NCBI GenBank assembly: GCA_031549365.1
Contig: JAVBPX010000001.1
Span: 96,001-160,000 of the forward strand
Origin: Alphaproteobacteria bacterium
Lineage (GTDB): Bacteria; Pseudomonadota; Alphaproteobacteria; Rs-D84
Direction of reading: 5' to 3'
Length of the DNA stretch: 64,000 nt
Numbering within the stretch: position 1 is the first letter of the stretch; the number at the start of each line of letters is the position of its first letter. The notes beneath the pieces were generated by a model. That model searched no databases, was not told the DNA's origin, and was given only the letters and a program-made list of their open reading frames with translations. Shown piece after piece: positions 51,782 through 59,938 of the stretch. The position numbers and the translations under genes were made by a program.

Positions 51782-51873
51782 GGAGAGGTGGCAGAGCCCG
51801 GTTGAATGCGCTCGACTCGAAATCGAGTATACTGGCGACAGTATCGGGGGTTCGAATCCCCCCCTCTCCGCCA
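51782..51873 (+). tRNA. tRNA-Ser(CGA)
   Basis: GGAGAGG/CCTCTCC acceptor, CTCGA-CT-CGA-AA-TCGAG anticodon arm, long variable arm, TTCGAAT, G73-CCA. Confidence 0.96.
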
Positions 51874-51926
51874 GACAAGATATTGATTTTACTACAATTT
51901 TTTACAAAATCGATAACCCTTGAATT

Positions 51927-51951
51927 ATCCCCGGAATTCGGGGATTTTTTT
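51927..51951 (+). terminator. terminator after tRNA-Ser
   Basis: ATCCCCG-GAATT-CGGGGAT followed by a T run. Confidence 0.8.
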
Positions 51952-52088
51952 GATGCGATTTTAAGGTTATTGCAATGGTATGTGATTTAATATGTGAAAA
52001 TACGGCGATATTTTGATGTTTACATACAATGCCCGTTTTTGGCAGTGCACTGTTCATTGGTGCGAGGAAATTTTAAGGGAGTTTATTA

Positions 52089-52191
52089 TTGACTTTTTTG
52101 ATGATTTGTGGTATAATGCAGAGTATATTAGGACGGATTTTATCCGTCTTTTTTAATTTTAGTCCCGCTATTTTTGGCGGGGCTTTTTTTT
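52089..52191 (+). promoter_or_regulatory. sigma70 promoter followed by two terminator-like hairpins
   Basis: TTGACT-17-TATAAT (52089-52117); GACGGA-TTTTA-TCCGTC+T run; CCCGCTA-TTTT-TGGCGGG+T run. Confidence 0.65.
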
Positions 52192-52210
52192 ATATTTTTA
52201 AGGGAGTAAT

Positions 52211-52990
52211 ATGAAAAATAATTTTTTTAACGAACAATCTTTAAATTCTGATATTAAAACTCAGATTATCTTAGCTACATTTAAACTTTGGCTTCAAGAC
52301 AATAAAAAGGAACAAAATCTATCTTATATTGATCTATTTTCAGGGCCTGGCATATATGATGATGGAACATTATCTACACCGATATGTATTTTACAGGAAA
52401 TTTGCAATAATAAGAGAATGGCACAGAGATTCAATGTGATCTTAAATGATTATAATGCAGAATTTATTGCAAAATTGCGTCGTATGATTTTGAATGTGAA
52501 AAATGCTAGGTTTATAAAAACTTTGGTTACTTCGATTGGTAATGCTGAAAGTTTTCAAAAGACCGTATCTAATAATGAACATATCTTCATGTTAATTGAT
52601 CCTTGGGGATGGAAGGGTATAAATAGAAATTATATTAATAATATGTTATTAAATAAGGACTGTGATATTGCGGTGATGTTTAATTTTAATCAGTTTAATC
52701 GGTTTATGAATTTTGATATCGCAGATGAATTGTTTAATGATTTGTTTGATAAAAAAACTTTGCACGAAATACGTAAATTTTGTAGCACAAATCCAAAATC
52801 GGAAAGAGAACAATTCGTGATAGATAAATTTGTGAAAATGGTTTGTAAAAATTGTGAAAATTGTAATTACACGCCATTTAAATTTAAGATGGAAAAATCG
52901 ACGCGTACAAGCCATTATATTATTTTTATAATTCGTGATAAAGATAGATTTCAAGCAACGAAAACTTTGTTAAATCAATACTTGGCTTGA
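52211..52990 (+). CDS. tcmP: three-Cys-motif partner protein (TcmP, SAM-methyltransferase-like fold)
   Basis: YIDLFSGPGxYDDG...TP, LIDPWGWKG; directly upstream of DUF5131. Confidence 0.8.
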   Translation: MKNNFFNEQSLNSDIKTQIILATFKLWLQDNKKEQNLSYIDLFSGPGIYDDGTLSTPICILQEICNNKRMAQRFNVILNDYNAEFIAKLRRMILNVKNARFIKTLVTSIGNAESFQKTVSNNEHIFMLIDPWGWKGINRNYINNMLLNKDCDIAVMFNFNQFNRFMNFDIADELFNDLFDKKTLHEIRKFCSTNPKSEREQFVIDKFVKMVCKNCENCNYTPFKFKMEKSTRTSHYIIFIIRDKDRFQATKTLLNQYLA

Positions 52991-53021
52991 AAAATAATAT
53001 CGTTTCTGGCATAATGTGAAT

Positions 53022-53756
53022 ATGGCAGAAAAATCTAAACTTGAATGGACGGATGCAACGTGGAACCCAGTTGTTGGATGTACAAAGTACAGCGATGGGT
53101 GTATAAATTGTTATGCAAAACCAATTGCAGAACGTTTGTGTAGACAAGGAGTTTTTGGATACGAAAATGGTTTTAAAATGACATTGCGTCCAGAGCGTTT
53201 GGAAATTCCATTGCATTGGAAAAAACCAAGATTAATATTTGTAGACTCCATGTGCGATTTATTTCACGATGATGTGCCATTAGAATATATTCAGAAAGTT
53301 TTTGCAATAATGAAGCGTGCAGATTGGCATGTTTATACCATATTAACAAAACGATCAAAGCGTTTGCGTGAATTGGCGTCAAACCTTGAATGGATGCCGC
53401 ATGTTGTAATGGGTGTAACGATTGAATCCGATAAATATCGTGATAGGCTGGATGATTTGAAGGCTGTGCCTGCATATATGCGATATTTATCATTGGAGCC
53501 ATTGTTGGGACCAATTAACCGATTGGATTTGGATGGAATTGATTGGGTTATTGCTGGTGGAGAATCCGGACCAAATGCACGGCAACTGGATACAAATTGG
53601 GTCAGAGAAATTCGCGATTGGACATTGGAACAAAAAGCTGCGTTTTGGTTTAAACAGTATAGCGAGTATGGGGGACAGCATAAAGACCCTATTTTAGATG
53701 GGGAAAAATATAAGCAATTTCCAGATTTTAAAACCGGAAAACCGAGTCTGTTTTAA
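53022..53756 (+). CDS. DUF5131 (phage Gp37/Gp68-like) radical-SAM-like protein
   Basis: EWTDATWNPVVGCTKYSDGCINCYA, SMCDLFH, LTKR, SLEPLLG, WVIAGGESG, FKQ. Confidence 0.9.
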   Translation: MAEKSKLEWTDATWNPVVGCTKYSDGCINCYAKPIAERLCRQGVFGYENGFKMTLRPERLEIPLHWKKPRLIFVDSMCDLFHDDVPLEYIQKVFAIMKRADWHVYTILTKRSKRLRELASNLEWMPHVVMGVTIESDKYRDRLDDLKAVPAYMRYLSLEPLLGPINRLDLDGIDWVIAGGESGPNARQLDTNWVREIRDWTLEQKAAFWFKQYSEYGGQHKDPILDGEKYKQFPDFKTGKPSLF

Positions 53757-54387: not shown

Positions 54388-55980
54388 ATGTCGGATAACA
54401 ATGCCATTCATTGGGCGGATTTTATTGCAGAGCGAATAATTCGTGAAAAAGGCGATAAAGATTTATATACTTTGGCCAGCGGAATTACCCCGTCTGGGAC
54501 AATTCATATTGGAAAATTTCGCGAGATTATAACCACCGAATTGGTGTCCCGGGCGTTGGTTCGCATGGGGAAAAAGGTACGTTTTATTTATTCTTGGGAT
54601 GATTATGATACTTTTCGCAAAGTGCCGGGCGATATGCCACAGCAAGAGATGTTAAAAGAATTATTGTATCAGCCGATTGTCGATATTCCAGATGTTTACG
54701 GAACAGAAAGTTCTTATGCTCGGCATAACGAAGTGTCGTTGGAACGTATTGCTCCGGTATTGGGCATAACAAATATTGAATTTATTTATCAAAGTCGGAT
54801 GTATCGTAGTGGCGAATATAATGATTTGATTATAAAGGTTATGGATTCGCGAGATAAAATTCGTGATATTTTACAGACATCTAAAAGCCAGGGGATGGAT
54901 GAAGAGTTTTATCCTATTGCAACTTATTGCAGCAATTGCAATCGTGACCGAATTGTTTTTTCAAATTATAATACATCAGATAAAACAGTTGATTATAAGT
55001 GTAAGTTATGCAACCACACGGAAAAGTTAAATTTACGCGATTCAAGGCGGCTGAAATTGCCTTGGCGAATTGATTGGCCAATGCGTTGGGCATTTGAAAA
55101 TGTTGATTTTGAACCAGGTGGGACAGATCATTCTTCGGCTGGGGGCAGTTTTGATACCAGCAAAGTAATCGTTAGTGAGATTTTTGGAGGGGCGTCTCCG
55201 GTTTATGCAAAATATGCATTTGTATTGCCAAAGGGTGAAAGCAAAAAGATGTCTTCGTCAATTGGTAACGGGTTTTCTGTGGAAAGCGTTTTGCAGGTTT
55301 ATGAACCAGAAATGATACGTTGGTTTTTTGCTTCGTATAAACCAGATGCGCAGTTCAGTATGGCTTTTGACATTGATGTTTTGAAGAATTACGAAGCATT
55401 TGACCGAATGGAACGCGTGGTTTATGGATTGGAAGATGTGAATGATGACAGGCGTGCAGTGCAGCGGCGTATTTATGAAATGTCTCAGATAAATTTTGAT
55501 GGAAAGATTCCGGAACAGATGCCTTTTCAGCCGAGTTTTAGGCACCTGTGTAATCAGTTGCAAATAAACGAATTTGATATCGAAAAAACCAGAGCATATT
55601 ACGCCCACCAAATCAAAAATGACATCGATGAACAACGGTATCAAGAAAGGTCCAAATGCGCAGTATTTTGGATACAAAATTGTGCTTCGGATGATTTCAA
55701 ACTTATATTGAATTCCGAAAAACGCAATGACATGACATTGTCGACAGATGAAAAAAAGTTCGTGAATGACTTGCACAAAATGTTGGAGATTGATTGGGAC
55801 AATTTAGATGACGAACGCGTCTTACAAAGTAAGGTCGGTGAATTAATTAAGGCCAACGGATTGGAAGTACTAAATGCGTATAAACTGTTATATCAGTTAC
55901 TGGTCAATCGGGACCAAGGACCAAAGCTGGCCGGATTTATTTTGGGTATTGGCAAGGATAAGATTCTGAATTTGTTGTAA
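54388..55980 (+). CDS. lysS: class I lysine--tRNA ligase (spirochaete-like)
   Basis: HWAD, ASGITPSGTIHIG, SWDDYD..RKVP, KLPWRIDWPMRW, KMSSS, GPKLAGFI. Confidence 0.93.
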   Translation: MSDNNAIHWADFIAERIIREKGDKDLYTLASGITPSGTIHIGKFREIITTELVSRALVRMGKKVRFIYSWDDYDTFRKVPGDMPQQEMLKELLYQPIVDIPDVYGTESSYARHNEVSLERIAPVLGITNIEFIYQSRMYRSGEYNDLIIKVMDSRDKIRDILQTSKSQGMDEEFYPIATYCSNCNRDRIVFSNYNTSDKTVDYKCKLCNHTEKLNLRDSRRLKLPWRIDWPMRWAFENVDFEPGGTDHSSAGGSFDTSKVIVSEIFGGASPVYAKYAFVLPKGESKKMSSSIGNGFSVESVLQVYEPEMIRWFFASYKPDAQFSMAFDIDVLKNYEAFDRMERVVYGLEDVNDDRRAVQRRIYEMSQINFDGKIPEQMPFQPSFRHLCNQLQINEFDIEKTRAYYAHQIKNDIDEQRYQERSKCAVFWIQNCASDDFKLILNSEKRNDMTLSTDEKKFVNDLHKMLEIDWDNLDDERVLQSKVGELIKANGLEVLNAYKLLYQLLVNRDQGPKLAGFILGIGKDKILNLL

Positions 55981-55984
55981 TTCA

Positions 55985-56749
55985 TTACCTTTCTTGTATG
56001 TGCTTTCCCATAATGCACTGGCGAGCGATGATTTTTTTGATGTTACTGCCGACAAGTTGCGATGTTAGAGGGCAATGATAGCTTTTTTTGAAATTTTCAG
56101 TGCATTGTTGTAAAGTTTCTGTAAAATTTGGTTTATAAAATTTTCCAATTTCTATACCCACAGGGGTGTTTTCAAGATTTCCCTTTGCTATTTCGTTATC
56201 AAAATTTTGTTTTGTAGTCGCAATTATATGTTTATTATCAGTGGTATGCAAGTGTGGTTCAGCCCTCTCCCATTGCGGTTGTGTAGATACAAATTTATCG
56301 GCCTCTTGCTTGTATGTTGAGTGTAATAGTGGACTATCTTTTAGTATTATTTTAGGTAAGTGCAACACCCATAAAATAATTCGAGCATATTGAAATTGCG
56401 ATAATATGCAATCAGTTAATACGCATGAAGAACTCATAATTGACGGTAGAGAATCTTTAATGTTATTTGCAATGTATATGAGATCTGAAAGGCATTCTTT
56501 GTCTAGGCAAAATCCAAGGTGGTCAAAATCCTTTTGAAGGTCGTAATGCAGTTTCTTCATGTATTCAAGAAATTTTTTTTCTTGTTCGTGGTTGGATTTT
56601 TTTAGTAATATAAAAGTGTCAACATCTGAATTTGTTTTATCTTCACCTCGAGCAGTTGAGCCACATATAAATGAAAACTCTAGATTGTCTCCGAATATCT
56701 CTCGGGTATCTAAGTCCAATTGTTTTATCTGTTTTTTTGTTATTTTCAT
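55985..56749 (-). CDS. Pol-beta-superfamily nucleotidyltransferase-domain protein
   Basis: FICGSTARGEDKTNSDVDTFI (hGS...DxD). Confidence 0.8.
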   Translation of the reverse strand: MKITKKQIKQLDLDTREIFGDNLEFSFICGSTARGEDKTNSDVDTFILLKKSNHEQEKKFLEYMKKLHYDLQKDFDHLGFCLDKECLSDLIYIANNIKDSLPSIMSSSCVLTDCILSQFQYARIILWVLHLPKIILKDSPLLHSTYKQEADKFVSTQPQWERAEPHLHTTDNKHIIATTKQNFDNEIAKGNLENTPVGIEIGKFYKPNFTETLQQCTENFKKSYHCPLTSQLVGSNIKKIIARQCIMGKHIQER

Positions 56750-56771
56750 TATTATTTACCAGTTGCTGTTT

Positions 56772-58229
56772 TTATAAGTATCTTACGATTTCTCTCTGAG
56801 GTAGAATTGGTTGTGGAGTAAATATGCCTTTGTAATAGATTCCAGATGCATGCTTTCCTATACCGCCATATGGTTTGTATCCATGCTCGAAATTGTGTAG
56901 ATGGTCATTCACAAGTATAGAGTCCGGCATATGGATTTTTTCATCATAAAGTATGGCTATTGTTTCTTCTTTTAATTTTCCATAAACTGTCAAAAACATA
57001 GCTGATTCTTTATATTTTGTATTTTTGAAATAGTTTATAAGTTCATTTTCTGAATCATAAGGTTGTATAAAGAATATTGGACAGAACAATTCTTCGTAAT
57101 TAGCTCCTTCAGAGAGATCCTTTACTATTACCGTAGGATATATCATATTTTTTGAAGCGTCTATAAGACCTCCATAATAAATATTCTTCCGATTGTTATA
57201 AATTAGTTTTGCAGCATTTAATGCGTATCCATCTTTTGTATTAGGCATTATTATCGTGGATTTTTCAGGATTTGAATTACAGTTTTCATGAATTTCTTTT
57301 AATTTATTTATTAAAATTTCTTGAAAATCTGTTAAACAATCTCTTTTCACAAGTAATGCATTTGGGGCGGCACAGTCTTGTCCTTGGTTGTATGTTCCAA
57401 GCTCGATACATGCTTCGACGGCTTCTTTGATATTTGACCGAAGATTTATTATAACCGGGTTTTGTCCAGCACCACCAAAGAAACAATATAACTCTTTGTT
57501 ATACGATCTTTTTACTTTCTTCATGTTTTCATATGTACCTGTAAATATAAATGCCTTTATTTCATTTCGTGTAATATTGAGAAAATCCTCTCTTCCTCCA
57601 TAGAATATTTCTATATTTGGCATACTTGATAAATTTAACAATTTATCTAGCTCTTTAAAAACGTCTTGAGAATCATTTGGATATCTAACATATACTTTCT
57701 TACAAATATACGATGGAACAAGAGCAAAACAAACAAAGGAATACAGCAATTGGTTTAAAGGCATAAATGACGCGATTGGTGCTTTCTCTTTTAAAAAGTA
57801 TTCCTTATTTATGGTAAGATTTGTAAGAAGGTCTATTGATCTATCAATTTCATCACATATTGTATTATAGGTGGCATATGATGAAAGAGCTTTATAGATA
57901 TCTTCTCTGCGCTGATTTAATTGAAACGAAAAATTGAGCGCGTCTGTTAAAATTTTATCAAAGTCTAGATTATTTTCCACGTCTTTTTTAGAAATATTTG
58001 TTCTTTGTCCAAACCAAGAGCCAATTTCCTTTTTACTGAGTTTCTCTGTTTTTACTATAAGCCCTAAGTCATTTTTTTCATACTCCAGGCTGAGATTGTT
58101 AATATTGTGGAGTATATTATCTTTAGCTTTTGTATCCATCTCATCAAATTTGAGGATAAAAGTCAGCCCATTTTTATCTTGTAAAATGGTTCCAATAGGC
58201 TGTTTCTTTTTCCTTACTATGAAGTCCAT
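56772..58229 (-). CDS. aldehyde dehydrogenase-fold protein (atypical)
   Basis: PLNQ, FTGT, GGAGQNP, NQGQDC (catalytic Cys), EELFCP, PYGG; RBS AAGGAG. Confidence 0.85.
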   Translation of the reverse strand: MDFIVRKKKQPIGTILQDKNGLTFILKFDEMDTKAKDNILHNINNLSLEYEKNDLGLIVKTEKLSKKEIGSWFGQRTNISKKDVENNLDFDKILTDALNFSFQLNQRREDIYKALSSYATYNTICDEIDRSIDLLTNLTINKEYFLKEKAPIASFMPLNQLLYSFVCFALVPSYICKKVYVRYPNDSQDVFKELDKLLNLSSMPNIEIFYGGREDFLNITRNEIKAFIFTGTYENMKKVKRSYNKELYCFFGGAGQNPVIINLRSNIKEAVEACIELGTYNQGQDCAAPNALLVKRDCLTDFQEILINKLKEIHENCNSNPEKSTIIMPNTKDGYALNAAKLIYNNRKNIYYGGLIDASKNMIYPTVIVKDLSEGANYEELFCPIFFIQPYDSENELINYFKNTKYKESAMFLTVYGKLKEETIAILYDEKIHMPDSILVNDHLHNFEHGYKPYGGIGKHASGIYYKGIFTPQPILPQREIVRYL

Positions 58230-58260
58230 ATTTTCTCCTTGATTAATGTGGACCTTAAGT

Positions 58261-59760
58261 TTATCTCAACTTTATTTTTTTTAACATGGGAAATGTTAAA
58301 ACATCTCTGATATTAGATGAGTTTGTTAACATCATGGCGAGGCGATCTGCACCTATTCCCATGCCTCCTGTAGGGGGCATACCGTATTCTAAAGCTGTAA
58401 GAAAGGCTTCATCCATTTGCATTGCTTCAGGATCATCTGAAAGAGATGCTTGTTCTTCGAATTTTTTTCTTTGATCTATTGGATTTGATAATTCTGAGTA
58501 AGCTTCACCAAATTCAATGCCGCCAACATAGAGCATAAATCTTTCAGAAAGACGTGGGTTTTGTCGATGTATTTTTGTCAGCGGAGATATATCATATGGA
58601 ACATCCATTACGAAAGTTGGTTGAATAAGAGTTTTTTCGACTTTTTCTTCAAATATAGTTTCTACTACTTTACCCCAAGATTCAGTTCCCTTGAGTCGAA
58701 TTTTGTGTTTTTGGGCAATGCTATGAATTTCCCTATCGCTCATGTTTATAAGATCTTCGTTCAGCGCTTCTGATGCTGCGTCTACCATTGGTAATCTTTT
58801 AAATGGTTTTTCAAGGTCTATTAAGGCATCTTTCCAAGTAATGTGGAGAGAGCTGTTGACAGCCATAGATGAATCTCGCAGCAATCTTTCTGCGAGAATC
58901 ATCATGTCAAAATAGTCTTTATAAGAGCCATATATATCTAGCATTGTGAATTCTGGACTGTGGCGATTATCAATACCTTCATTGCGGAAATTTTTACCAA
59001 TTTCAAACACTCGAGGAATGCCTCCAACAATGAGCCGCTTTAGTTCAAGTTCAGATGCTATCCTGAGATAAAAATCGTCTTTAAGAGAATTATAATGTGT
59101 AGTAAATGGAGCAGCATTTGCACCGGCTTTTACTGGGTGAAGTATAGGTGTTTCTACCTCTATATATCCCTCATCGTGCATTACTTCGCGTATAGCATAC
59201 ATTGCTTTCGCCCTATTGAGAACAACATCCCGAGAGTTTTTGTTTACTATAAGATCTACGGATTTATTGCGGTATCTTTCTTCGGAGTCTGTTAGACCGT
59301 GGTATTTTTCAGGAAGAATATTCAATGATTTTGACAGCATTGTTACTTCCAGAGGAGTAACAGAAACTGCTCCTCGCAAAGTTTTTTTAATTCCTCCCAA
59401 AACACCAATTATATCACCAATGTCAAGATTTTTAAGCATGTTATTAAATTGTGTATCTGCTTTTGGATTTTCATTGCAAATTTGAATTTTTCCGGATTCA
59501 TCTTCAACATCGATGAACATTCCGGAATTTCGGATTGCCATAATTCTTCCTGCAATTTTTACAATGTCTTTTGTATCCGCTGTCTTTTCACCAGGTTGAA
59601 GGTGGCCAAATTCAGCTATTATATTACTGGCAAGATGCGTTGGTTTGTATATGTGTGGATATGCGTTTATTCCTTGAGATTCGATGTCTTTAAGTTTTTG
59701 AATCCTTATTTCTTTTAAAGAATTTATTGGTGTCTTATTATCTTTTTTTTGATTTTGCAT
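58261..59760 (-). CDS. lysS: class II lysine--tRNA ligase paralogue (full length, with OB-fold)
   Basis: AGRIMAIR, LPEKYHGL, EVETP, YLRIASEL, FRNEG..HSPEF, YGMPPTGGMGIGADRL. Confidence 0.92.
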   Translation of the reverse strand: MQNQKKDNKTPINSLKEIRIQKLKDIESQGINAYPHIYKPTHLASNIIAEFGHLQPGEKTADTKDIVKIAGRIMAIRNSGMFIDVEDESGKIQICNENPKADTQFNNMLKNLDIGDIIGVLGGIKKTLRGAVSVTPLEVTMLSKSLNILPEKYHGLTDSEERYRNKSVDLIVNKNSRDVVLNRAKAMYAIREVMHDEGYIEVETPILHPVKAGANAAPFTTHYNSLKDDFYLRIASELELKRLIVGGIPRVFEIGKNFRNEGIDNRHSPEFTMLDIYGSYKDYFDMMILAERLLRDSSMAVNSSLHITWKDALIDLEKPFKRLPMVDAASEALNEDLINMSDREIHSIAQKHKIRLKGTESWGKVVETIFEEKVEKTLIQPTFVMDVPYDISPLTKIHRQNPRLSERFMLYVGGIEFGEAYSELSNPIDQRKKFEEQASLSDDPEAMQMDEAFLTALEYGMPPTGGMGIGADRLAMMLTNSSNIRDVLTFPMLKKIKLR

Positions 59761-59782
59761 AGATATACCTTTTTATACTTTT

Positions 59783-59855
59783 TGGGGGGCGGTCCGGATT
59801 TGAACCGTACCTCTGAGGGAAAACTCAGCGTTCTGCCTAATTATACTACCCGCCC
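59783..59855 (-). tRNA. non-canonical tRNA-like gene (73 nt including CCA)
   Basis: GGGCGGGTAGTATAATTAGGCAGAACGCTGAGTTTTCCCTCAGAGGTACGGTTCAAATCCGGACCGCCCCCCA: acceptor GGGCGG/CCGCCC, D-loop GG, CTGAG/CTCAG arm with 6-nt loop, GGTTCAAATCC, CCA. Confidence 0.8.
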
Positions 59856-59938
59856 TATAATTGTGATGAAGTGATCCCATCAACTTATCATTGTTTATGT
59901 CAAAAGCAATTTAAATGTCAATAATTATTTTTTGTTAT

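Follow-up and report, generated by a model that had tools for sequence, protein, structure and literature searches.

Organisation of the locus

We analysed a 64,000-nt stretch of contig JAVBPX010000001.1 (positions 96,001 to 160,000 of the forward strand; assembly GCA_031549365.1, Alphaproteobacteria bacterium), hereafter the window, in which a first-pass annotation had proposed a tRNA-dependent pathway encoded by four tightly packed, co-oriented genes. Every one of these features was present on the minus strand, in the order tRNA-like gene (73 nt, 59783-59855, with G1 at 59855, A76 at 59783 and an encoded CCA), class II lysyl-tRNA synthetase (LysRS2; 499 amino acids, 58261-59760; PF00152 at 273 bits, PF01336 at 41 bits, PRK00484 at 596 bits), aldehyde dehydrogenase (ALDH)-like protein (485 amino acids, 56772-58229; PF00171 at 68 bits against a cut-off of 23) and Pol-beta-type nucleotidyltransferase (NTase; 254 amino acids, 55985-56749; PF01909 at 31 bits against 21 and PF18765 at 28.8 against 26.9). 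Read from the sequence, the gaps are 22 nt between the RNA gene and LysRS2, 31 nt between LysRS2 and the ALDH-like gene and 22 nt between the latter and the NTase gene, and a site scan of the region found no terminator-like sites between the operon genes. The description of the synthetase as a second LysRS beside a class I enzyme also held, with a class I LysRS gene (LysRS1; 54388-55980, plus strand; PF01921 at 382.7 bits, TIGR00467 at 478 bits against 147.55) converging on the operon so that its stop lies 4 nt from that of the NTase gene.

The ALDH-like family is recurrently linked to lysyl-tRNA synthetases

A first homologue search with the ALDH-like protein returned 77 proteins, the closest of which was 40% identical. 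One source labelled many of these, which are about 600-620 amino acids long, as 'lysyl-tRNA synthetase class 1', and a class I LysRS Pfam domain was present in one Xenorhabdus homologue. Scanning genome and metagenome contigs with a family profile gave 160 loci (146 non-redundant; numbered L where a single one is meant), which were sampled in order of similarity to the window protein and are no census, and these were sorted by BLASTP and HMM searches with the window's proteins. The largest class comprised 68 loci from candidate phyla radiation (CPR) lineages in which the ALDH-like domain is followed by a C-terminal domain of about 170 amino acids. Direct fusions were found in both orders, including LysRS1-ALDH proteins of 936-991 amino acids in 25 loci (Photorhabdus, Xenorhabdus, Pseudomonas, Brenneria and others), ALDH-LysRS1 proteins of 977-1126 amino acids in 13 CPR loci and ALDH-LysRS2 proteins of about 890 amino acids in five loci. 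A separate LysRS1 or LysRS2 gene lay within 600 nt of the ALDH gene in three and two loci, respectively, and LysRS2 was present elsewhere in the locus in four. The script saw no LysRS in 26 loci, seven of which are high-GC actinomycete loci with a LysRS1-like gene directly upstream; nine have a contig end within 600 nt, and ten have adequate flanks and no LysRS.

A profile built from 63 distinct C-terminal domains matched residues 389-530 of the window LysRS1 (hhalign probability 99.9%, E 2e-31). The matched region corresponds to the last ~145 residues of class I LysRS, which we take to be its anticodon-binding part. The expected synteny of ALDH homologues with LysRS was borne out, the ALDH-like domain being fused or adjacent to a LysRS, or joined to a LysRS tRNA-binding domain, in 127 of the 146 non-redundant loci. 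Linkage to class II LysRS, which the first-pass annotation had named as the partner, was indeed seen, but class I LysRS is the family's most frequent partner, fused or neighbouring, and that stronger link had been missed. The family has been joined independently to two structurally unrelated LysRS classes, with the domains in either order, and to the anticodon-binding domain alone; this ties the enzyme to tRNA(Lys), and such linkage would be hard to explain unless the enzyme acts on a tRNA(Lys)-bound substrate. The fusions are unlikely to be assembly artefacts, given their repeated occurrence in isolate genomes of Photorhabdus, Xenorhabdus and Pseudomonas. The linked LysRS was the only LysRS found in the genomes of L008, L051 and L039; the genome of L042 has an extra class I LysRS fused to ALDH together with a separate class II LysRS.

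The surroundings of the ALDH gene differed between lineages. A major facilitator superfamily (MFS) transporter follows the LysRS1-ALDH fusion in the three loci scanned, and a homologous open reading frame (ORF) cluster of about 385 amino acids occurs in 21 loci. The fusion, or a gene pair, followed by this MFS gene was seen at L081:4399-8389, L029:4306-8389, L011:4364-8372 and 18 further loci from Xenorhabdus, Photorhabdus, Pseudomonas, Brenneria and actinomycetes, and LysRS1-ALDH with the MFS gene looks like a minimal two-gene biosynthetic cassette. CPR loci with an ALDH protein of 600-650 amino acids (e.g. L145:1301-2791 and L143:4618-4965) have two upstream ORFs, one of about 496 amino acids with a TrmB-like N-terminus (69 loci) and one of about 115 amino acids with no family match (48 loci), the latter overlapping the ALDH start by 4 nt. 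Further frequent neighbours in CPR loci were DnaK, DnaJ and a class I Trp/Tyr-type aminoacyl-tRNA synthetase (PF00579). In a Cytophagales metagenome-assembled genome (L006:3775-10951) the ALDH and NTase genes cluster with aminotransferases (a 734-amino acid class I/II aminotransferase-domain protein and a class-III, or omega, aminotransferase), a short-chain dehydrogenase/reductase (SDR) and a haloacid dehalogenase (HAD) hydrolase, with no LysRS within 6 kb of the cluster.

An ALDH fold with the catalytic cysteine and no hydrolytic glutamate

The AlphaFold model of the ALDH-like protein, made with 45 homologues as input, had a pLDDT of 94, and Foldseek matched it only to ALDHs, the best being 3pqa (E 8.5e-21), with TM values of 0.66-0.70 and 13-20% identity across the matches listed. 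PF00171 was the only family returned by the Pfam scan, placing the protein in the ALDH superfamily. In profile alignment to solved ALDHs, the catalytic Cys is matched by C286 (within 'NQGQDCAAPN'), the oxyanion Asn by N159, the cofactor-binding EExFGP motif by E380/F382/P384 and the NAD(P) loop by FTGT. C286, N159, G231 and E380 are invariant among the 45 homologues and F382 is nearly invariant (at least 90%), each of the five falling on its counterpart in the ALDHs. The position of the general-base Glu (Glu268 equivalent) is occupied by Asn252, itself nearly invariant in the 45 sequences, with the family motif 'NGAGHNP' aligning to 'MELGGHAP' of the solved ALDHs 9zh8 and 5x5t. Cysteine-thioester chemistry on an ALDH fold had been suggested for this protein, and retention of the Cys with Asn in place of the hydrolytic Glu appears compatible with it. 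Such a pattern would be expected of an enzyme that forms a Cys thioester without hydrolysing it and then reduces it or hands it on, and seems to fit a reductase.

Several known enzyme types were considered for this protein. A classical hydrolytic ALDH was rejected on the replacement of the general base by Asn252 and on the best NCBIfam ALDH equivalog, which reached 57 bits against a cut-off of 650. The LuxC family PF05893 (cut-off 21) gave no match to the window protein, and its relatives P0004, P0003, P0041 and P0016 scored 23.7-26.9 bits. Homology to HemA was likewise rejected, with Pfam giving only PF00171 and the fold search only ALDHs, so that any likeness would be one of function.

The first 88 residues make up a small, separate and basic domain (pI 9.2) that occurs in a subfamily only, and the C-terminal extensions elsewhere in the family are also basic (median pI 9.6). 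A search of the ESM Atlas brought up no useful counterpart of the N-terminal extension (best value 0.85, lower than the useful range), and kinship with the 115-amino acid ORF preceding the ALDH gene in CPR loci was rejected (hhalign probability 0.1%). A predicted complex of LysRS2 with the ALDH-like protein scored 0.00 against a mark of 0.32 and was counted neither way.

The partner nucleotidyltransferase

The NTase carries the G[SG]...DxD...D signature, with G30, D42, D44 and D76 invariant in 14 homologues. Its family was reached only by a profile built from ORFs adjoining the ALDH gene, a word-based search with the single sequence having returned only the protein itself. NTase genes adjoin the ALDH gene on the same strand in 23 of the 160 loci, or 20 of the 146 non-redundant ones, and again in L187. 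The predicted synteny of the two genes was in this way upheld, and it extends to fusion. ALDH-NTase proteins occur in L111 and account for six of ten long proteins examined (P0088, P0090, P0165, P0184, P0195 and P0213), one of the six with an added GNAT domain, and the ALDH parts of the six are 30-36% identical to the window protein. The other four long NTase proteins are fused to an aminotransferase (two), a pyridoxal phosphate (PLP)-dependent decarboxylase or an opine-dehydrogenase domain. These partners suggest that the NTase substrate would be a small amine-type molecule rather than tRNA. In a library of 1.84 billion proteins the profile found 320 proteins at E <= 1e-10.

Additional NTase fusions were noted to a GTP-cyclohydrolase-II-like domain (L043:8630-10219 and L046:4176-5792, the latter identical to L103) and to an APH-type kinase domain (L164:3422-4942), and L051:3515-4147 is a separate GTP-cyclohydrolase-II-like gene between ALDH and LysRS2. 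A nucleotide may take part in the pathway.

The NTase model was poor beyond residue 100 (pLDDT 57), and with this model the fold search gave no match at E <= 0.001. Assignment as an MntA antitoxin, ANT(9) or Hailong HalB was rejected, the respective scores being 21.2 against 60, 19.8 against 340 and 15.9 against 190 bits. A role in defence, with the RNA as an anti-toxin decoy of tRNA-Lys, had been offered as an alternative to a biosynthetic function and found no support, since PADLOC returned only weak generic MNT models for the NTase (best 36.7 bits, PDC-S09 among them) and nothing for the ALDH-like protein, LysRS2, LysRS1 or the phosphodiesterase-like neighbour described below.

Three lysyl-tRNA synthetases in a reduced genome

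The operon LysRS2 belongs to its family by PRK00484 (596.2 bits against 468) and TIGR00499 (540.8 against 427.6), and comprises an OB-fold anticodon-binding domain (PF01336) and the class II core (PF00152). EpmA/PoxA was rejected as an assignment, the TIGR00462 score of 209.6 bits lying below the cut-off of 286.9 and the OB-fold domain being present. Of 56 positions without variation in 17 other LysRS2 proteins the enzyme retains 52, including all of those in the anticodon-binding domain, and its catalytic invariants are intact; judged by these residues it looks like an active enzyme.

The first-pass annotation was right about the window's enzymes of class I and of class II but had missed a third LysRS, a class II copy of 488 amino acids on another contig of the genome (C5:19866-21308, minus strand, equivalent to L002:1501-2967, minus strand), giving the 0.91 Mb genome three LysRS genes, one class I and two class II. 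The operon and C5 copies are about 47-48% identical (blastp 46.8%). A maximum-likelihood tree places the C5 copy beside three same-family relatives (support 100/100, 70-76% identity), and the operon copy on a branch of 0.89 against a median of 0.24, loosely grouped with three relatives. The operon copy is only 45-52% identical to the LysRS2 of any relative, its best match in a collection of 5.8 billion proteins was 62% and its nearest named homologues (about 48-50%) are from Alphaproteobacteria metagenome-assembled genomes. From these comparisons the C5 copy is the vertically inherited LysRS2 and the operon copy an extra, divergent and fast-evolving paralogue.

Among 40 relatives a class II LysRS was found in 28 and a class I LysRS in ten; 38 of the 40 showed one or other of the classes, and both occurred in only one. 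The window LysRS1 is 68-72% identical to the LysRS1 of two same-family relatives that do not have the ALDH gene (G017, 72%; G012, 68-70%), and no flanking synteny was common to it and its orthologues in relatives. This convergent class I LysRS is possibly part of the system.

The tRNA-like gene and other atypical tRNA-Lys genes

A CCA-ending tRNA-like gene that breaks canonical rules had been reported at the head of the operon, and such a gene is present. ARAGORN called it at 59784-59856 on the minus strand as 'tRNA-???' with a 2-base anticodon, and it scored 28.6 bits (E 0.017) against Rfam RF00005, whose gathering score is 29, compared with 57.7 bits for a canonical tRNA-Ser in the same search. 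Its anticodon loop, UUUUCC, has 6 nt instead of the 7-nt loop with U33 and a purine at position 37. The acceptor stem has six G-C/C-G pairs and a G7:A66 mismatch, followed by discriminator C and the encoded CCA; the T-loop is the canonical UUCAAAU, the D-loop AAUUAGGCA contains GG, and the acceptor start GGGC is that of the genome's tRNA-Lys(UUU). The gene is single-copy, and no att-like repeat of its 3' half was found within the window. The genome holds 44 ordinary tRNA genes, all with an encoded CCA, and since tRNA-Lys(UUU) and tRNA-Lys(CUU) are among them the odd RNA is supernumerary. A contig from an RNA library of another sample reproduces 59705-59922 with 0 differences and 0 gaps, so a single faulty assembly does not account for the 6-nt loop.

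A scan upstream of ALDH homologues for the same odd tRNA, as the first-pass annotation had suggested, yielded comparable genes in two other loci but not orthologues of the window RNA. ARAGORN placed a tRNA-Lys gene in five of the 160 loci, of which three (L043, L070 and L129) were canonical and 1-2.5 kb away. The remaining two, both tRNA-Lys(CUU) on the ALDH strand, lie directly upstream of the ALDH gene. In L008 the distance to the start of the ALDH ORF is 25 nt (68 nt to the ALDH match), and in L086 the gap is about 400 nt. Their anticodon loops, UUCUUUA and CUCUUUA, have U37 where tRNA-Lys has A, and both have a longer variable region and a mismatch atop the anticodon stem. In Rfam they scored 48.1 (L008) and 49.4 bits (L086) against 65-77 for other tRNAs of the same loci and genome. 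The L008 gene is supernumerary because canonical CUU and UUU genes occur in the same genome. All three loci with an atypical tRNA (window, L008 and L086) encode their class II LysRS as a separate protein; their RNAs are not orthologues of one another.

As to related observations, the atypical gene of L008 (L008:5855-5933) encodes its CCA and the canonical copies (L181:1501-1572 and L182:1500-1573) do not. The class II LysRS of this locus (L008:3751-5718, minus strand), which is divergent from the atypical tRNA-Lys and ALDH genes, carries a C-terminal DUF2000 (PF09391) fusion, as do P0296, P0321 and P0332. Rfam at relaxed thresholds found no further tRNA-like element in the LysRS2-linked loci L051, L111, L142, L039 and L101, and ARAGORN at 90% thresholds gave mostly implausible additional calls within coding regions of high-GC loci. 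The relaxed ARAGORN run also called an 89-nt 'tRNA-Stop(tta)' with a long variable arm at L049:5207-5295 and L157:4207-4295, about 620 nt upstream of the ALDH gene in these two near-identical CPR loci.

Host, origin and expression

Genomes of the host's class reach 5.9 Mb and the nearest named kin of the operon LysRS2 are from Alphaproteobacteria metagenome-assembled genomes, so that the host is no CPR organism but belongs, as a reduced member, to a class of ordinary bacteria. The ALDH gene was found in none of the 40 relatives and in none of 400 sampled genomes of the class, and G+C falls to 30-34% over the ALDH and NTase genes against 39% for the genome, from which we conclude that the module was probably acquired laterally. 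In the order of L008 the ALDH gene was found in only two of 24 genomes, that of L008 included.

One RNA library, from another sample of the study that probably supplied the source DNA, contained contigs identical to 55653-56194, 58243-58452, 59391-59707 and 59705-59922. These cover parts of the NTase, LysRS2 and the RNA gene, the last contig spanning the RNA gene and the LysRS2 start, and give a weak hint that the operon is expressed; parts of the operon that no contig covers are no evidence of silence.

Flanking features

The promoter-like motif named by the first-pass annotation, TTGCTT (59909-59904) and TAAGTT (59887-59882) on the minus strand with a 16-nt spacer and a TG before TAAGTT (59882-59909 overall), can be seen in the sequence but is absent from the output of a consensus promoter scan, whose criteria it fails. 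The region moreover contains no more promoter-like sites than chance would give (30, against 30.7 +/- 5.6 in shuffled sequence), and for both reasons the call is unverified. A type I phosphodiesterase/nucleotide pyrophosphatase-like gene (PF01663; 59939-61087, minus strand) ends 83 nt upstream of the RNA gene; as it has homologues in none of the 160 related loci it was kept outside the system. On the other side lie a tRNA-Ser(CGA) gene (51782-51873), an AT-rich stretch (G+C 0.29 at 52000-52999) with weak sub-threshold sRNA-like Rfam matches at 52111-52191, and a DUF5131 gene (53016-53756). The region 51782-53756 may be an island boundary.

A proposed lysyl-tRNA-dependent pathway and its alternatives

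We put at about an even chance the reading in which the four genes form one functional module that would divert lysine from translation, by way of lysyl-tRNA, into a reductive pathway. LysRS would charge a tRNA(Lys)-type acceptor with lysine, a task for the extra class II copy, perhaps together with the class I neighbour. The ALDH-like enzyme would be held on the tRNA by its appended domain or by the synthetase itself, and the lysyl group would pass from the 3' end of the tRNA to Cys286 as a thioester. This would be reduced with NAD(P)H to an alpha-amino aldehyde, lysinal; reduction is proposed in place of hydrolysis because the water-activating Glu is missing. The odd RNA would most likely be a dedicated non-translational acceptor, with a U-rich loop for LysRS and a loop of 6 nt that makes it unfit for decoding. 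The NTase would most likely nucleotidylate a small-molecule product or intermediate, and the product would be taken further by the NTase in this genome and, at other loci, by transaminases, an SDR or a transporter. What the sequences demonstrate is the gene set, its intact catalytic motifs and the recurrent links of the ALDH family with both LysRS classes, the NTase and the tRNA(Lys)-binding domain; the reductase chemistry, the product, the charging of the odd RNA and the NTase substrate we infer.

More tentatively, and with the odds somewhat against us, we extend this to the family as a whole. The ALDH-like proteins would then be a class of lysyl-tRNA reductases that has become linked to LysRS several times independently, through fusion with class I, fusion with class II or acquisition of the anticodon-binding domain alone, and makes lysinal-derived metabolites, with a partner NTase and, in some genomes, private non-decoding derivatives of tRNA-Lys. 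The same joint reading would take in insect-pathogen symbionts, pseudomonads, actinomycetes (with the MFS gene) and a large part of the CPR.

A number of observations weigh against the proposed module. Both the direction in which the enzyme works and its acyl acceptor are inferences; lacking the hydrolytic Glu, an ALDH could also hand its acyl group to an amine or a thiol. In the window no candidate other than the NTase was seen for taking up a reactive amino aldehyde. Probable lateral acquisition, with the ALDH gene missing from all sampled relatives and class members, leaves the function of the module in this host unproven, and the RNA-library contigs are of low depth and could reflect DNA carry-over. 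The RNA itself scores below the Rfam gathering threshold, has mismatches in its weak D- and T-stems and at pair 7:66, and does not adopt a cloverleaf as its minimum free energy fold, whose energy is unremarkable relative to shuffles (z -1.85; 9 of 200 shuffles fold at least as well). No orthologue of it was found, and hence it has no support from covariation. In 144 of 146 related loci there is no atypical tRNA beside the ALDH gene, so the family works without a private tRNA and the window RNA could be a relic.

The last points favour an alternative that keeps the pathway and changes only the acceptor, in which the tRNA-like gene is a decayed relic or passenger derived from tRNA-Lys and LysRS2 and the ALDH-like enzyme use canonical tRNA-Lys. 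We think this rather unlikely, while giving it serious weight. The sub-threshold Rfam score, the 6-nt loop, the mismatched stems and a fold no better than shuffles are all what decay would leave, the gammaproteobacterial fusion loci have no tRNA-Lys gene, and the operon LysRS2 retains every invariant residue of its anticodon domain. In L008, moreover, the ALDH-adjacent LysRS2 must charge canonical tRNA-Lys because it is the only LysRS found in that genome. Against decay stand the retained CCA, T-loop, D-loop GG and GGGC acceptor start, the position of the gene only 22 nt before the LysRS2 start, the RNA-library contig running across it and the two independent loci with a supernumerary atypical tRNA-Lys directly upstream of ALDH. 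That same 22-nt spacing could also suit a cis-acting tRNA mimic in the LysRS2 mRNA leader, bound by LysRS to control translation or the operon and never an acceptor, much as ThrRS controls its own translation through its operator. Its U-rich loop resembles the anticodon of tRNA-Lys, the contig 59705-59922 is continuous from upstream of the element into LysRS2 and no terminator-like site intervenes. An anticodon-arm mimic, however, would have no need of an encoded CCA and a full acceptor and T-arm, the tRNAs of L008 and L086 precede ALDH and not LysRS (which in L008 is on the other strand), and a contig over two genes is no proof of a single transcript; we hold leader control to be improbable.

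Slightly less probable still is a different chemistry for the enzyme, in which it would oxidise an aldehyde and pass the acyl-Cys intermediate to an amino group of tRNA-bound lysine, giving N-acyl-Lys-tRNA for use in proteins or as a donor, with the atypical tRNAs as decoding variants. CoA-acylating ALDHs have lost the hydrolytic Glu and kept the Cys and the NAD(P) site, as here; a tRNA(Lys)-binding domain would hold the acceptor, and U37 or a 6-nt anticodon loop could alter decoding. A two-gene cassette with an MFS transporter in gammaproteobacteria and actinomycetes nevertheless fits a small exported or imported molecule, L006 has its ALDH alongside transaminases, an SDR and a HAD hydrolase, fusion of the NTase to transaminase, decarboxylase and opine-dehydrogenase domains points to small-molecule chemistry, and no conserved aldehyde-supplying enzyme lies nearby. 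The genes might, finally, be unrelated neighbours, comprising a LysRS paralogue for resistance or stress (like LysU or inhibitor-resistant synthetase copies), an ordinary ALDH and an MNT-type antitoxin or defence NTase. Paralogues of aminoacyl-tRNA synthetases are often so explained in the available part of one review (PMC5388404), and the NTase does weakly resemble MntA and the PADLOC model PDC-S09. The ALDH family is, on the other hand, fused to both LysRS classes and to the NTase family and lacks the hydrolytic Glu, PADLOC matched neither the ALDH-like protein nor either LysRS, there is no HEPN partner and the MntA cut-off was not reached. The fusion data already contradict chance neighbourhood, which we regard as very improbable indeed.

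Significance and comparison with known systems

To our knowledge only a few families use aminoacyl-tRNA off the ribosome, namely GluTR, Fem/MprF, L/F-transferases, cyclodipeptide synthases, LanB and PEARLs, and the discovery of each opened a field. The genomic logic described here, which is unusually clear, suggests a further family of this kind with the ALDH fold as its basis. If its members do reduce Lys-tRNA they would be, as far as we know, the second aminoacyl-tRNA reductases after GluTR, and would explain an unannotated two-gene cassette in natural-product producers. They would also provide a role for a gene widespread among CPR genomes, which supplied about half of the loci fetched and have a poorly understood metabolism. 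The extra tRNA-Lys genes of atypical form would then be further examples of tRNAs dedicated to chemistry and not to decoding. Because natural LysRS-ALDH fusions occur in culturable Xenorhabdus, Photorhabdus and Pseudomonas, the idea is testable at once.

Among LysRS paralogues and fusions only LysU, PoxA and LysX/MprF are named in the accessible sections of one source (PMC9437257), an MprF-LysRS fusion is the only one mentioned in those of another (PMC5388404), and the word 'aldehyde' does not occur in the accessible text of a survey of class I aminoacyl-tRNA synthetase-like proteins (PMC2922099). Full-text literature searches returned no work joining LysRS with an ALDH-like reductase; subscription journals are mostly outside their coverage, and a prior description is possible. 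The terms 'lysyl-tRNA reductase', 'aminoacyl-tRNA reductase' and 'tRNA-dependent reductase' did not occur in the papers listed by one of these searches.

The closest parallel in logic is with GluTR (HemA) of the C5 pathway, in which an active-site Cys attacks the Glu-tRNA made by GluRS and NADPH reduces the product to an alpha-amino aldehyde. The same logic is proposed here for lysine, and L006 carries a class-III aminotransferase, the type to which HemL belongs, beside its ALDH gene. Unlike GluTR, the window protein has an ALDH fold (PF00171 only), its putative substrate would be lysine, and its family is fused to a synthetase or to its anticodon-binding domain and has an NTase partner. LuxC-type acyl-CoA and acyl-protein reductases and CoA-acylating ALDHs share with it the ALDH fold, the Cys and the absence of the hydrolytic Glu, and several relatives of the window protein pass the PF05893 cut-off. 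The window protein itself has no LuxC match, however, its proposed acyl donor is an aminoacyl-tRNA, and tRNA-binding domains are appended in the family. A precedent for tRNAs set aside for chemistry is provided by the staphylococcal non-proteinogenic tRNA-Gly species that serve Fem-dependent peptidoglycan synthesis, in which charging is kept and use in translation is disfavoured. These too are supernumerary isoacceptors with sequence changes, but they have full cloverleaves and normal anticodon loops, in contrast to the 6-nt loop in the window and U37 in L008 and L086.

Odd tRNAs have also been connected with the coexistence of both LysRS classes. LysRS1 and LysRS2 together act on tRNAOther of Bacillus cereus and tRNAPyl of Methanosarcina (PMC2916919, as far as the accessible text goes), and tRNAOther, which has a Trp anticodon and acts as a T-box regulator, is poorly lysylated and not found on polysomes according to the accessible part of PMC3399842. 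The window shares with these an atypical tRNA-like RNA in a genome with both LysRS classes. tRNAOther differs in having no ALDH or NTase partner, and the window RNA, compared here by description only, is part of an enzyme operon and has a loop of 6 nt that is rich in U. In LysX and MprF the enzyme using up the Lys-tRNA is joined to the LysRS paralogue that makes it (accessible parts of PMC9437257 and PMC2922099), which is the design principle of the LysRS-ALDH fusions. In those proteins the Lys-tRNA is used by a membrane aminoacyl-transferase that acts on phosphatidylglycerol, whereas the LysRS-ALDH proteins carry what appears to be a soluble, ALDH-fold, NAD(P)-dependent enzyme, involve both LysRS classes and occur in either fusion order. 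What would be new is thus a tRNA-dependent biosynthesis with an unrelated fold and new partners, the nearest known systems being either alike but non-homologous, as is GluTR, or similar in the theme of an odd tRNA only, as is tRNAOther.

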